Below are positions 4,794 to 64,000 of a stretch of 64,000 bases of DNA, in pieces. Position 1 is the stretch's first letter, and each line of letters starts with the position of its first letter. The notes under the pieces are model-generated. The model had not been told where the DNA came from, did no database searches, and worked only from the letters and a program-made list of their open reading frames with translations. The position numbers and the translations under genes are program-made. Source of the stretch: Candidatus Uhrbacteria bacterium (lineage in GTDB: Bacteria; Patescibacteriota; Patescibacteriia; UBA9934); NCBI GenBank assembly GCA_018664485.1, contig JABJOE010000006.1, forward strand, positions 71,294 through 135,293, read 5' to 3'.

Positions 4794-5972
4794 TTATTCT
4801 ATAATCTTTGTTACAACTCCAGCTCCAACTGTTCGTCCACCCTCTCGGATAGCGAAACGCATCTCGTCTTCCATAGCAACAGTCTTACCAAGTTCAACAG
4901 TAACGTTAACTGTATCTCCAGGCATAACCATCTCAGAACCTTCCGGTAGAGCTACGATATCTCCAGTAACATCCGTTGTTCGAATGTAGAACTGTGGCTT
5001 GTAACCTTTGAAAAATGGCTTGTGTCGTCCACCCTCTTCCTTTGTCAAAGCGTAAATCTTTGCTTCGAACTTTGTGTGTGGCTTAACAGTACCAGGAGCA
5101 GAAAGCACCATTCCGCGCTCAATGTCATCCTTCTTAACACCACGCAATAGGATTCCAGCGTTGTCTCCAGCCATACCTTGGTCGAGGTTCTTGTTGAACA
5201 TCTCAACTCCAGTAACAACTGTCTTTGAAGTTTCTCGCAAACCAACGATTTCTACTTCTTCGTTTACGTTTACGATTCCACGTTCAATTCGACCAGTAAC
5301 AACCGTTCCACGACCTTCAATAGAGAAAACGTCCTCAATTGGCATCATGAATGGCTTTTCAGTCTCACGCTTTGGCTCAGGGATGTACTCATCCAAAGAC
5401 TTTACAAGCTCTTTGATTGGTCCCTCAGCGTCTCCACCGTCCTCGATAGCCTTTAGAGCAGATCCACGGATGATTGGTGTCTCATCTCCAGGGTATTCGT
5501 ACTGCTTAAGAAGATCGCGAACCTCCTCTTCAACTAGGTCGATCAACTCAGGATCGTCAACCATGTCAACTTTATTCAAGAAAACTACGATTGCCGGCAC
5601 TCCAACCTGACGAGCAAGAAGGATGTGCTCACGCGTCTGAGGCATAGGACCGTCAGCAGCTGATACAACCAAAATTGCACCATCCATCTGAGCAGCACCT
5701 GTAATCATGTTCTTCACGTAGTCCGCGTGACCTGGACAGTCAACGTGAGCATAGTGACGAGCCTCTGACTCATACTCCACGTGTGAAGTAGAAATAGTAA
5801 TACCACGCTCCTTCTCTTCTGGAGCATTGTCGATTTGGTCAAAAGCCTTCGTCTGAGAATCAGGTGAGAAGATCTTTGACAAAGCAGCCGTCAACGTAGT
5901 CTTACCGTGGTCAACGTGACCAATAGTACCAACGTTTACGTTTGGCTTACTGCGAACAAACTGTTCTGCCAT
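4794..5972 (-). CDS. tuf: Elongation factor Tu
   Basis: 392 aa; [22 protein letters not shown] GTPase motifs. Confidence 0.97.
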
Positions 5973-6756: not shown

Positions 6757-6793
6757 GTTTTCGCATATGCAGTTACGCTGCGTATGCGAAAAT
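6757..6793. terminator. Hairpin gTTTTCGCATATGCAG-ttacg-CTGCGTATGCGAAAAt downstream of the response-regulator gene
   Basis: ~15-bp stem with one mismatch, flanked by T/A runs. Confidence 0.4.
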
Positions 6794-6822
6794 TACCGTT
6801 CTATTCCGATTTGGGCCTGGAC

Positions 6823-42002: not shown

Positions 42003-42467
42003 TTACTGGACAGTGACTGCCGCACCTACGTTTCCGCAGGCATCCCTTGCGATCCTGGACGCCAGCATCTGTCGACGATATTCATCATGCCCTGTGTCGA
42101 ACGCCCAATCGACATAGTAGCCACCCAGACAGCGAGTGAGCACCCCAGGAGACCACGCGTCCGCAGGGTCTCCAGTGAAGCTGCCGATAGTGGGGACCAC
42201 GAAGGTTGGAGTGATCGAACCGTAGTCGACCATTGCCTGAGCGGGCGGGCTCGTAGGCAGAATTGGCTCAGCTACCCCGTACGGGAGCATGTAGGTAGTG
42301 GCCGTAGTGTCATTCGTGACCATGTCCAGGCTATCCAAGCCCTCAGGCCAGAAGTCTGGCAACACCACATAGACGTGATCAGGTGATTCAGCCGAGGCCT
42401 CATCGGGAGCGTCGCTAGGCCCACCACAACGGGGAACGAACATGAAAGCGAGAAATACAGTACGCAT
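42003..42467 (-). CDS. Hypothetical secreted protein (GC-rich orphan)
   Basis: ORF to 42527; start chosen at MRTVFLAFMFVP.. (AAGGA RBS); N-terminal signal-peptide-like segment. Confidence 0.5.
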   Translation of the reverse strand: MRTVFLAFMFVPRCGGPSDAPDEASAESPDHVYVVLPDFWPEGLDSLDMVTNDTTATTYMLPYGVAEPILPTSPPAQAMVDYGSITPTFVVPTIGSFTGDPADAWSPGVLTRCLGGYYVDWAFDTGHDEYRRQMLASRIARDACGNVGAAVTVQ

Positions 42468-42585
42468 GACTGTCCTTTTGAATTGGTGCGACAAGCCCTG
42501 CCGCAGGGGAAAATGATCTCCTATCAAGGTTCACAAAGACGCTTCAAAGTAGCACTAAATAGGCCCCATGTCAATCCATCGCTGC

Positions 42586-45638: not shown

Positions 45639-45715
45639 GCGGCGTTAGCTCAGCTGGATAGAGCGTCTGGCTTCGGACCAGAAGGTCGGGGGTTCGAACC
45701 CCTCACGCCGCACCA
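45639..45715 (+). tRNA. tRNA-Arg (anticodon TCG), CCA encoded
   Basis: Cloverleaf: acceptor GCGGCGT/ACGCCGC, D-stem GCTC/GAGC, anticodon stem TCTGG/CCAGA with loop CTTCGGA, T-arm GGGGG-TTCGAAC-CCCTC, discriminator A, CCA. Confidence 0.9.
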
Positions 45716-61100: not shown

Positions 61101-62879
61101 ATGTCTGGTGATCTACCGTCAATTGAAGATTTATTGAAAAAGTCTGCATCGCAAGGTGGAGACGGCGACGCTGTTGCGGCACCTGATGAGGACATAGTGG
61201 TTCCCGTTAAAAAGTCTCACGAGGACATGACTACCGAGGAGCTTCTCGACGAGAAGATGGGAAAGATGGACCTCAAGTCAAAAGAGCAAGAGGCATTAGC
61301 TATGTCTGCCACAGCTGGTGTTCCCTACGTCGACTTAAAAGGGTTCGCGATTAGTGCAGACGCCATTTCTCTTATCCCTCAGAAACGTGCAGAAGAGCTC
61401 AAGGCTGTTGTTTTTCTACATACCGGTCCTGAGTTACGTCTTGGTGCAGTTGATCCGGCTAATGAGGAGGTAAAGCAAGTACTTCACGAGCTTACTGAAC
61501 GCTACAAGACAAACGGTGAGTTGTACCAGATCTCACAAGAATCTTTGGACAAGGCGATAAAGCTATACGCTGCCCTTCCGCAGATTCGCGTCATCGTTAA
61601 AGGTGTCCAGATCAAAAAAGAGGAACTCGAGGCATATCAAGAAAAGATGAATAGCTTTGCCGATATACAAGCGATCTTGGACGGTGCGAGTATTACAGAT
61701 ATTCTTTCAATCGTTACAGCGGCATCCCTTAAACTTGGTTCGTCAGACATCCACATTGAAGCTGAAGAGAAAGAAATCGCAGTACGCTTGCGAGTGGACG
61801 GAATTCTACAAGACGTTGCAAGTATCGATAAAGCTCAGTGGAAGAAAATCATCAACCGAATCAAGCTCATCGCAGGGCTTAAAATGAATATCAACGATCG
61901 TCCTCAAGATGGTCGCTTCACAATTTTTCAAAAAGGTAAAAAGATCGACGTTCGTACATCTACCCTTCCAACTGCATGGGGAGAATCGGTAGTTATGCGT
62001 ATTTTGAATCCCGATTCTATCAAGCTTAAGTTTGAAGACCTCGGTTTCCGGCCAGCTTCACTCAAACGCTTACTGTCAGAGATTAGTAAGCCCCATGGAA
62101 TGATCGTTACAACCGGTCCAACTGGATCTGGTAAAACGACAACGCTGTATGCGATCCTTACAAAGCTCAACGAGCCTGACGTAAAAATCATCACGCTCGA
62201 GGATCCGATTGAGTACAAACTCGCAGGTGTAAACCAGAGTCAGATCAACCACTCAAACGACTACACGTTCGCAAAAGGACTACGATCTATCTTGCGTCAG
62301 GACCCGGACATCGTTCTAGTGGGTGAGATCCGTGACCTTGAAACAGCAGAGACCGCAATTCAGGCAGCGCTTACCGGTCACCTTCTACTCTCCACAATCC
62401 ATACCAACGATGCGGCCGGAGCAATCCCTCGATTTACTTCAATGGGTGTGAAACCGTTTTTACTAGCGCCTGCAATTAACGCGATCATGGGTCAGCGTCT
62501 TGCGCGTCGACTATGTCAGGAATGCAAAAAGCCGACAGAGATCGAAGCGGAACTTCTCGTGAAGGTTAAAGAACTACTCGACACAATCCCTGAAAGTTCC
62601 GGGGAGCAAAAAGTAGATACAACCAAGCTTCAGTTCTTCGGCCCTGGAGGGTGTGATAAATGTAATGATACTGGCTATAAAGGTCGAGTCGGGCTCTATG
62701 AGATCCTCACAAAAGACGCAGAGATTGAGAAGTTTATCCTAAGTGGTGAGATTTCAGAGTACAAAGTTCGAGAAGTGGCGGCAGCGCAGGGTATGGTCTT
62801 CATGGCTCAAGACGGCCTATTGAAGGCACTGGAAGGTCAAACATCTGTGGCGGAAATAAAACGAGTAACTGGGATGTAA
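61101..62879 (+). CDS. pilB: Type IV pilus assembly / type II secretion ATPase (PilB/GspE family)
   Basis: 592 aa; N-terminal T2SSE_N domain, GPTGSGKTTTL Walker A, Asp box, His box, CxxC..CxxC zinc tetracysteine. Confidence 0.92.
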   Translation: MSGDLPSIEDLLKKSASQGGDGDAVAAPDEDIVVPVKKSHEDMTTEELLDEKMGKMDLKSKEQEALAMSATAGVPYVDLKGFAISADAISLIPQKRAEELKAVVFLHTGPELRLGAVDPANEEVKQVLHELTERYKTNGELYQISQESLDKAIKLYAALPQIRVIVKGVQIKKEELEAYQEKMNSFADIQAILDGASITDILSIVTAASLKLGSSDIHIEAEEKEIAVRLRVDGILQDVASIDKAQWKKIINRIKLIAGLKMNINDRPQDGRFTIFQKGKKIDVRTSTLPTAWGESVVMRILNPDSIKLKFEDLGFRPASLKRLLSEISKPHGMIVTTGPTGSGKTTTLYAILTKLNEPDVKIITLEDPIEYKLAGVNQSQINHSNDYTFAKGLRSILRQDPDIVLVGEIRDLETAETAIQAALTGHLLLSTIHTNDAAGAIPRFTSMGVKPFLLAPAINAIMGQRLARRLCQECKKPTEIEAELLVKVKELLDTIPESSGEQKVDTTKLQFFGPGGCDKCNDTGYKGRVGLYEILTKDAEIEKFILSGEISEYKVREVAAAQGMVFMAQDGLLKALEGQTSVAEIKRVTGM

Positions 62880-62926
62880 TTGGCTAAAATAAGCGAAATT
62901 ACCGAATAAATTATGTAAATCGATAC

Positions 62927-62955
62927 TTGACAAAAGTGTCGATTTATGTTATTCT
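62927..62955 (+). promoter_or_regulatory. Strong sigma70-type promoter TTGACA-17-TGtTATTCT, flanked by inverted repeat AAATCGATA..GTCGATTT
   Basis: cttgacaaaagtgtcgatttatgttattct; extended -10 TG. Confidence 0.6.
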
Positions 62956-62961
62956 TTAAGG

Positions 62962-63113
62962 GTCAAAAGTTCACAACTTAATCTGGAGAGAGCCTGAGAT
63001 GCGCAGGTAAAAACGCATCAAAGCCCATGTAGGAGTAATTCCCTACATAGGTATTGAATACGGATGATTCTTCGTCTCTCGCTTTGAGATTAAGATTCAT
63101 CCGTATTTTTTGT
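62962..63113 (+). ncRNA. Candidate ~150-nt structured RNA (sRNA or attenuating leader) ending in an intrinsic terminator
   Basis: Hairpins GATGCG..CGCATC (62998-63019), ATGTAGG..CCTACAT (63027-63048), and terminator ACGGATGATTC..GATTCATCCGT plus ATTTTTTGT (63060-63113). Confidence 0.45.
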
Positions 63114-63215
63114 AAGGATATGGGACCCGCCATGCAATGCGTTACACAACGTATGCAGCGCGGGCTTCAAATCAAAGACAAGAATCAAAACCTCACCCAA
63201 AGCCCTGGAGACAAT

Positions 63216-63527
63216 ATGGGACTCGAAAACCTTCTCGCCTTCGTCGTACTCCTTACTGGAGGACTGTTCCTCCTGGTGCTGATCGCGTTTGCGATGCTGA
63301 CCATTCTCGGACTTGGCCTCCTTTGCCTGGTAGTGCTCATGGCCGGTGTGATCTTCTCAATCGCAATGCCTTTGGCAGCCTTCATTGCTACCGTATGCAC
63401 CATCGTGATGGGATTCTATTTCCTCCGGTACATCTGGTCTAGCAGTGAGATCAAGGTAGCGAATGCGCGAGCTAATGTGCCAGTCGCAGCGACGCCCGCT
63501 ACCCCAGCGGTTGCCGCGGCCGCCTAG
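63216..63527 (+). CDS. Small hydrophobic membrane protein (104 aa, 3 TM) with Ala/Pro-rich tail
   Basis: GGAGA RBS before MGLENLLAF..; GC-rich. Confidence 0.5.
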   Translation: MGLENLLAFVVLLTGGLFLLVLIAFAMLTILGLGLLCLVVLMAGVIFSIAMPLAAFIATVCTIVMGFYFLRYIWSSSEIKVANARANVPVAATPATPAVAAAA

Positions 63528-63579
63528 CTTCTACACAACTTCTTACTCCCCGTGATTGAAAATCACTGGGGACCCACCA

Positions 63580-63924
63580 ATGAACATGACTCGATCGTGT
63601 CCATCGGCGGGATTAACAACCTCCCGAACGGCAGTAATGCCAAGGACACCCATGCCCATGCTCCTCGCCGCCCTCGCCATCATTGCTGGCGTCGCCGCTT
63701 TCCGAACCTGGAGTGAGTTCCTCACTCGCAACTACGTGTGGAGGAATTTTACCTCCGTCACGATCTGCATCGCCGCGTTTGCGGCATTCCTCTCCCTCAT
63801 CCATTTCGATGGAAAGGCAGCGATCCACATGCTCACCGCCGTCCCGGGAACCGTCCTGCTCGGTGTCTGCATGGCCGAGATCTCGTCTAAGTGGTTGACC
63901 CCGAGCAACCCTGCGACAACCTGA
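63580..63924 (+). CDS. Small membrane protein, first of two tandem paralogs (MNMTRSCPSAG..)
   Basis: Start context GGACCCACCAATGAACATG repeats at 63951-63993 before a third truncated copy (MNMIRSCASVG..) running off the window. Confidence 0.5.
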   Translation: MNMTRSCPSAGLTTSRTAVMPRTPMPMLLAALAIIAGVAAFRTWSEFLTRNYVWRNFTSVTICIAAFAAFLSLIHFDGKAAIHMLTAVPGTVLLGVCMAEISSKWLTPSNPATT

Positions 63925-64000
63925 AACGTCGTCCCCGCGATCGAATTCGCGGGGTCCACCAATGAACATGATTAGATCGTGTGCATCGGTGGGAATCCTT

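Follow-up and report, generated by a model that had tools for sequence, protein, structure and literature searches.

In small-molecule riboswitches, a standard layout is a compact pseudoknot that has an A-rich loop 3 and precedes a terminator. The guanidine-III class (ykkC-III, RF01763), which is used here as a lead only, is a very small H-type pseudoknot with the strand order S1a-L1-S2a-S1b-L3-S2b; it is found ahead of genes that encode small, hydrophobic membrane proteins of ~100 aa and acts on translation. The fluoride (crcB, RF01734), preQ1-I and SAM-II classes are pseudoknotted aptamers of ~35-55 nt with A-rich tails, and the fluoride class also controls small membrane proteins. In the pbuE/ydhL adenine riboswitch a strong promoter precedes a compact sensor that is closed by a short P1 helix, the terminator overlaps the 3' strand of P1, and the downstream membrane-protein genes are expressed by read-through only. 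A structured 5' region also precedes a hydrophobic peptide of ~38 aa in the type I toxin mRNA timP (RyfA), where a pseudoknot activates translation (PMC11228461). For the Patescibacteria, a literature search returned no description of native regulatory RNAs or riboswitches, and where the literature consulted mentions riboswitches, it is as tools for engineering or in the title of a cited work.

The leader RNA described here shares features with several of these systems. As in guanidine-III, a small predicted H-type pseudoknot lies upstream of genes for hydrophobic membrane proteins of ~100 aa, but here it is accompanied by a terminator and by an extra GAGAGAG strand. With the fluoride, preQ1-I and SAM-II classes it has in common a compact, putatively pseudoknotted core with an A-rich tail, whereas its conserved nucleotides are different and no CrcB or transporter domain is encoded downstream. 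The overall arrangement is that of pbuE/ydhL, except that the sensor would be a pseudoknot instead of a three-way junction and that P1 is weak in two lineages. By analogy, the function of the leader appears most like that of the ON-type transcriptional riboswitches, and its topology most like that of guanidine-III, fluoride and preQ1-I. It nevertheless belongs to none of these three classes, because there are no Rfam matches, other nucleotides are conserved, and the downstream genes are unlike the usual targets of those families. At the gathering threshold, Rfam 15 identified only a tRNA (at 45639) in the whole window, in agreement with the preliminary description, which had not recognised a known riboswitch class. 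At E-values up to 10, the leaders of the window and of two relatives (L182, L003) gave only scattered, mutually inconsistent sub-threshold matches; none was to the purine riboswitches, and none of the three homologues matched RF01763. SRP RNA, 6S RNA, T-box leaders and self-cleaving ribozymes were discarded as candidates, as Rfam gave no support for them.

We suggest that this RNA forms the 5' leader of a small operon, where it would serve in cis as a conditional transcription terminator, i.e. as a riboswitch-like attenuator (with a probability of about 0.55). That it is a conserved, structured and cis-regulatory RNA is likely. The window, which is the whole 64-kb stretch of DNA analysed, belongs to a genome of the Patescibacteria (CPR). 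In this region ftsH is followed by a gene for a membrane protein of 336-340 aa, pilB/gspE (61101-62879), the leader RNA, several small hydrophobic ORFs and the convergent genes tsaE and tsaD. The G+C content of the small-ORF region is 0.54, compared with ~0.46 for the rest of the window. Homologous leaders were found downstream of pilB in four relatives, giving with the window five distinct sequences from one sparse clade of Patescibacteria. In all five the leader occupies one position, between pilB (preceded by ftsH and the gene for the 336-aa membrane protein) and the small hydrophobic ORFs, with tsaE/tsaD beyond. Since the whole layout recurs in four other species-level sequences, the arrangement goes beyond chance.

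The four relatives are metagenomic, species-level sequences, and the five sequences represent about four lineages. Most of the homologues were obtained from the contigs that encode the closest relatives of PilB (79-86% identity) and of the neighbouring protein: L001 and L002, L003 (to which L020 is identical), and L004, L005 and L006. The leader of L182 was added through a search with the downstream 103-aa protein family. Two further contigs, L142 and L180, are identical to the window and were not counted as distinct. Protein searches gave five clusters for the 336-aa protein adjacent to pilB and five for the downstream 103-aa family, and these exhaustive searches suggest that the clade is truly sparse in public data. 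A pilB protein scan of GTDB genomes revealed no close relatives. A DNA pattern scan of the GTDB genomes gave 43 matches, all of them due to chance except L020; among the matches listed for metagenome contigs, most were (GA)n repeats and the sole real one was L142; and only chance matches were seen in viral contigs. A covariance model built from the five sequences detected exactly one leader copy per locus in the ~107 kb searched, with no second copy in the 64-kb window or at any related locus.

The contig L020 (CAYFME010000008.1, 66.6 kb) belongs to a MAG that was deposited as "uncultured Gammaproteobacteria bacterium". Where compared, its leader and flanks are identical to those of the Patescibacteria-type L003, and it carries the same pilB, downstream ORFs, tsaE and tsaD; it is probably mis-binned. 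The top-scoring PilB/GspE homologues from Patescibacteria are mostly ~1000 aa in length, double the 590 aa found in this clade.

Transcription of the leader would start from a putative sigma-70-type promoter on the forward strand (62927-62955), with a -35 element TTGACA (62927-62932), a 17-nt spacer and an extended -10 element TGtTATTCT (62947-62955) that comprises TG (62947-62948) and TATTCT (62950-62955). This is the textbook promoter that the preliminary description had pointed out. It scores 10 of 12 in addition to the TG, and TTGACA, a 17-bp spacer and TGnTAnnnT are all present, as expected of an extended -10 promoter. The combination TTGACA-N14-TGnTAnnnT is found twice in 64 kb, compared with 0.06 expected occurrences, and none of 100 shuffled sequences contained two or more. 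From spacing, the transcription start is placed at approximately 62961-62963. The layout TTGACA-17-TGcTAtAgT is seen in L001, L003 and L004, with a different spacer sequence; in the alignment of all five sequences a perfect -35, the TGn and the -10 are retained, as is the 17-nt length of the variable spacer.

The only other exact TTGACA-N14-TGnTAnnnT site in the window is on the reverse strand at 42546-42574, in a segment that is locally G+C-rich. Downstream of it come a ~70-nt 5' UTR, an ORF of ~150 aa (starting at 42466 on the same strand) and, near 41990-41950, a strong terminator hairpin. The promoter region of the leader also contains an imperfect 27-nt direct repeat (62911-62937 and 62944-62970, 70% identity, 33 nt apart) that covers the -35 region and the transcript start, which suggests remodelling of this region in the window by a small tandem duplication. 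Ahead of the GUUCACAAC box, the RNA of the window is ~7 nt longer than that of the relatives.

An AT-rich inverted repeat, ATGTAAATCGATACTT / AAGTGTCGATTTATGT (62913-62949; arms at 62913-62928 and 62934-62949), flanks the -35 on the forward strand. Its core, AAATCGATAC / GTGTCGATTT, had been interpreted in the preliminary description as an operator. This interpretation, and with it an operator-controlled promoter, was rejected: the repeat is missing from all four orthologous promoters in the alignment, and it is found once only in the window, where near-matches are at chance level and no other promoter carries it. In the relatives, an ordinary pilB terminator hairpin lies directly upstream of the -35. 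The stretch 62880-62965, which holds the inverted repeat, folds at -23.5 kcal/mol, compared with -16.9 to -19.8 kcal/mol for the matching stretches of the relatives that contain the pilB terminators. In the simplest view, the inverted repeat is probably the terminator hairpin of the pilB transcript, overlapping the promoter.

The leader (62955-63113) has a minimum free energy of -52.7 kcal/mol, as compared to -32.9 +/- 3.8 kcal/mol for shuffled sequences (z -5.17), none of 200 shuffles being as good. Three hairpins are predicted, at 62998-63019, 63023-63052 and 63056-63108. These are the three stem-loops that were noted originally and they lie where they had been placed, but the functional core does not consist of three independent hairpins. 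The second (GCC-C-AUGUAGG ... CCUACAU-A-GGU, forward strand, between core and terminator) is an insertion specific to the window and is not present in L001, L003, L004 or L182. The core common to all five sequences has the consensus GAGAGAG-CCYG-A-GAUGCN-CRGG-AAAU-NGCAUC-AAAC. It is preceded by a conserved 5' box, GUUCACAAC (62969-62977, forward strand), which in the relatives is located at the 5' terminus of the RNA or close to it; the form GUUCACAAY is conserved in 5/5 and overlaps the 5' strand of P1 in the relatives but not in the window. The purine strand GAGAGAG (62986-62992, forward strand), which forms the junction J1, is invariant in 5/5, and in most predicted folds of the completed leader it is unpaired, with partial pairing in a few.

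Two interleaved stems follow on the same strand. In stem A (62993-63007), CCUG (62993-62996) pairs with CAGG (63004-63007), and the 7-nt loop contains the 5' strand of stem B (62998-63019), in which GAUGCG (62998-63003) pairs with CGCAUC (63014-63019). Loop 3 of the window is UAAAAA (63008-63013), and stem B is followed by the conserved A-rich tail (63020-63022). Both stems are 100% paired in the five sequences. In stem A, a C-G pair present in four sequences is replaced by U-A in the window. In stem B, direct reading of the sequences shows that the sixth pair, C-G in L003, is reversed to G-C in the window; the fifth is U-G in L001. Between the window and L003, all four stem substitutions are pairwise compensatory, and the compensatory changes in the core are limited to one lineage. 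Taken alone, stem B has an energy of -6.4 to -9.1 kcal/mol and stem A of about -4.8 to -5.8 kcal/mol. With a loop 1 of 1 nt, no junction nucleotides and an A-rich loop 3 of 4-6 nt, the dimensions of the core would fit a classical H-type pseudoknot under the established loop-length rules. The two stems might form simultaneously, as a pseudoknot would require, or could instead represent two alternative hairpins.

When P1 and stems A and B were scored together (the aptamer state, on the trimmed alignment A6), 94.9% of cells were paired with 3 double changes; 15 of 500 shuffles scored as high, and slid controls were 19-43% paired. RNAalifold independently recovered stem B and the terminator helix. 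Comparative alignment, which had been proposed as a check for covariation, is clear for the terminator, in which seven pairs have changed on both sides, and less so for the core, where the compensated changes are in one lineage and 15/500 shuffles do as well. From the alignment, the terminator is secure and the core stems are well supported, without statistical proof; the five sequences, drawn from some four lineages, record very few covariation events in the core, which have no formal statistical power. Compared with its close relative L182, L004 carries two insertions, one of ~33 nt just 5' of GAGAGAG and one of ~36 nt in loop 3. These are mutually complementary and would add a helix, leaving GAGAGAG and stems A and B unaltered. 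An invariant core surrounded by loops into which variable helices are inserted is typical of a folded, functional RNA.

The intrinsic terminator occupies 63056-63111 on the forward strand. It has a basal stem of 12 bp (63056-63067 / 63097-63108), rather than the 11 bp originally given for this canonical terminator, and two upper segments (63069-63072 / 63092-63095 and 63074-63078 / 63086-63090), followed by UUUUUUGU. The window has UUUUUU at 63106-63111, and in the relatives the homologous stem is followed by UUUUGUU or similar. The apical part of the 5' strand carries a conserved (A/G)UCUCU. Seven of the 19 pairs show changes on both sides; in the terminator state of alignment A6, 94.9% of cells are paired with 8 double changes, a level reached in 0/500 shuffles, and slid controls are 28-47% paired.

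In the window, the first credible AUG (63216, behind a GGAG) is 103 nt beyond the terminator, in accordance with the ~100 nt reported initially. In the four relatives only 13-26 nt separate the U-tract from the Shine-Dalgarno (SD) sequence and AUG of a hydrophobic peptide of 36-61 aa. A short hairpin, CCGYG-UUUUGYU-CRCGG, comes after the U-tract in these relatives (L001, L003, L004 and L182); it reuses the 3' end of the terminator stem, abuts the SD of the peptide gene and shows a compensatory change from C-G to U-A. No promoter-like site on the same strand was seen between the leader promoter and the downstream genes at any locus. Because the terminator precedes the SD and no promoter intervenes, downstream expression needs read-through; and because the gap is so short in the four relatives, the leader RNA is physically the 5' UTR of the operon. 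The preliminary description had left open whether the RNA is an independent sRNA or an attenuating leader. Its account of an RNA that has a strong promoter, is structured, ends in a terminator and lies ahead of genes for small membrane proteins is supported, and of its two options the leader is favoured, since read-through is the only evident route of expression.

In the proposed mechanism, a constitutively strong promoter would start the RNA, the first ~60 nt of which would fold into a compact sensor made up of the single-stranded GAGAGAG, the interleaved stems CCYG/CRGG and GAUGCN/NGCAUC, the A-rich loop 3 and the AAAC tail. The sensor domain would be an H-type pseudoknot, with the intrinsic terminator directly 3' of it. 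It would be closed by P1, a helix between the 7 nt directly 5' of GAGAGAG and the 5' strand of the terminator, so that P1 and the terminator would be mutually exclusive. If a small molecule, ion or factor stabilised the sensor, P1 would hold and RNA polymerase would read into the genes for the small hydrophobic proteins, making this an ON switch; if not, the terminator would form and an RNA of ~150 nt would be released. It is tempting to go further and propose a true ligand-binding riboswitch, but this is doubtful. Equally tentative is the suggestion of a new riboswitch class in a small lineage of Patescibacteria, with an aptamer of ~45 nt (GAGAGAG and the pseudoknot) that would bind a small molecule or ion and switch on the membrane proteins.

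The proposed 5' strand of P1 in the window is UAAUCUG (62979-62985, forward strand), which pairs with 63061-63067, also part of the terminator 5' strand. In the alignment, the helix joins the 7 nt 5' of GAGAGAG to the first 7 nt of the terminator 5' strand (columns 11-17 and 59-65), with 88% of cells paired and two pairs changed on both sides. Against shuffled flanks, P1 is better than expected in L001 (p 0.015) and L004 (p 0.028), and P1 also appears in the predicted nascent-transcript folds of these two. In the window (p 0.35) and L003 (p 0.87) it is at chance level, and for that reason its role as the switch helix is unproven. In L001 a change from G to A at column 60 loses the terminator pair and keeps the P1 pair. 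Altogether, the modelled role of P1 as a switch helix is partly supported and is the best mechanistic proposal. An 8-bp complementarity between 62978-62985 and the terminator 3' strand was also considered and was dropped, as the relatives do not share it. Both GAGAGAG and the GAGAU of stem B are complementary to the AUCUCU that is conserved at the tip of the terminator; pairing of GAGAGAG with AUCUCUC of the tip would be possible in all sequences, and it would not be coaxial with P1.

If validated, an attenuator that is native to these bacteria and has so small a pseudoknot sensor would add a new family of cis-regulatory RNAs. It would also lead towards a signal governing the clade-specific membrane proteins beside the pilus machinery, and would offer a compact, portable control element for organisms without genetic tools. 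A new riboswitch class, if true, would be a first handle on what ORFan proteins near the type IV pilus ATPase of an uncultivated episymbiont respond to. With five sequences in public data the leader is extremely rare, and its general importance is limited accordingly.

A stand-alone, abundant sRNA of ~150 nt that acts in trans, with incidental read-through, would account for the strong promoter and the strong canonical terminator of the window and for the 103 nt to the next ORF; a terminator this strong, 100 nt from the ORF, argues against the switch mechanism and is also in keeping with a mostly terminated stand-alone RNA. Such an RNA might pair through its CU-rich terminator tip (AUCUCUC) with purine-rich ribosome-binding sites, and AUCUCU at the hairpin tip is indeed conserved while its pairing partner varies. 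Both the sRNA and this mode of action are nonetheless unlikely: in four relatives the SD follows within 13-26 nt of the terminator with no promoter-like site, and the leader is present in one copy only (~107 kb searched), always upstream of the same gene family. A dual role, in which the terminated leader also acts in trans, is possible. There is a similarly small chance that the leader responds to a protein, GAGAGAG and the pseudoknot being bound by an RNA-binding regulator, or needs no ligand and sets dosage as a constitutive partial terminator or 5' stabiliser. The invariant purine strand, which most predicted folds of the completed leader leave single-stranded, would suit a protein-binding site, two lineages have no convincing conserved antiterminator, and so tiny a clade is unusual for metabolite riboswitches; on the other hand, no gene for an RNA-binding protein is linked to the locus, and the layout matches the standard design of small-molecule riboswitches.

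Rather less probable is a type I toxin-like module in which, as for timP (PMC11228461), the leader would govern translation or stability of the peptide, together with an antisense or divergent antitoxin RNA. It would explain why a hydrophobic peptide of 36-38 aa (61 aa in L003) is encoded directly after the leader in L001, L003, L004 and L182, and why the conserved CCGYG-loop-CRCGG hairpin with its compensatory change abuts the SD. The window lineage, however, has an intact leader and promoter without the peptide gene, which is dispensable there, and the transcript runs on into further, larger membrane-protein genes. In contrast to timP, a terminator lies between the structure and the ORF, and no conserved minus-strand promoter for an antitoxin is present in or near the leader or the peptide region: a consensus sigma-70 scan of the window, L001 and L003 found none close to either, and the sole one in L004 is situated ~100 nt before the leader promoter and serves an unrelated upstream insert. 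Of the two marks of a type I toxin-antitoxin system, the peptide ORF is seen in four relatives and not in the window, and the antitoxin promoter was not seen. Least probable, and rejected here, is a ribosome-mediated attenuator in which GGAGAGAG would serve as SD for the conserved AUG in stem B, translation of the mini-ORF deciding on the terminator. The AUG is conserved in 5/5 and does follow a purine-rich stretch, but the ORF has 3, 8, 15, 39 and >60 codons across the five sequences, its frame relative to the terminator hairpin is not conserved, L001 and L004 lack GGAG, which is 13 nt away from the AUG, and the change from Pro-Gly to Arg-Arg in the window is exactly what RNA pairing requires.

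With cis-acting attenuation as the preferred reading, the downstream genes become the presumed targets. All five leaders precede the same lineage-specific operon of small membrane proteins, which are mostly ~90-125 aa long and hydrophobic; L020 also has an ORF of 412 aa. The first gene in the window (63216-63527, forward strand) encodes a hydrophobic protein of 103 aa from a lineage-restricted family without a known domain, which has four matches, all in this clade, among 1.84 billion representatives. Pfam assigned no family to any of the downstream proteins, and no SMR/EmrE, CrcB or other known transporter domain was found. As the regulated proteins have no known family or function, no ligand can be proposed from gene context. 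The orthologous 330-nt genes of L004 and L182 are in the same frame; the codon changes between them are synonymous in 18 cases and nonsynonymous in 37, with many conservative exchanges among I, V and L, which is consistent with a fast-evolving coding sequence.

The peptide gene found directly after the leader in 4/4 relatives encodes 36-38 aa in L001, L004 and L182 and 61 aa in L003, with the consensus ML.xML.E...P...W..DI.MR..G.L. Comparison of 63113-63216 in the window with L001 (5286-5430), L004 (4440-4570) and L182 (95-225) places a deletion in the window from just past the terminator to just before the next hairpin, and by this comparison the window lineage appears to have lost the peptide gene.

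That hairpin is the first of several between the cistrons. Type 1 (GGGACCCGC...GCGGGCUUC, 63121-63169, forward strand, z -3.2) lies in the read-through transcript before the first ORF, and its homologues precede the ~100-aa gene in L003, L001, L004 and L182. A type 2 hairpin (63567-63612) is followed by the second small membrane-protein ORF, which ends at 63924 (63567-63924 in all, forward strand), and a third hairpin copy is found at 63951-63994. The two types, GGGnCCCGC...GCGGGnnUC and CCACCAAUG...CAUCGGYGGG, have variable apical stems and conserved bases. In the relatives, hairpins are located at 6777-6815 (L003), 5452-5500 (L001) and 838-889 (L182), and in L004 and L182 the type 1 hairpin contains a large insertion. 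The hairpins may serve in processing, stability or translational coupling. Since AUG codons occur inside the type 2 hairpins, the annotated starts of the ORFs that follow are uncertain.

One species (L004, and identically L005 and L006) has a G+C-rich insert of ~640 nt between pilB and the leader promoter (L004 3455-4130). It has no convincing ORF and no Rfam match. A near-consensus minus-strand promoter, TTGACA-17-TGnTATGAT (4128-4100), and a strong terminator (3495-3464) are present, and the insert folds with z -3.55; it is a candidate for a large non-coding RNA.
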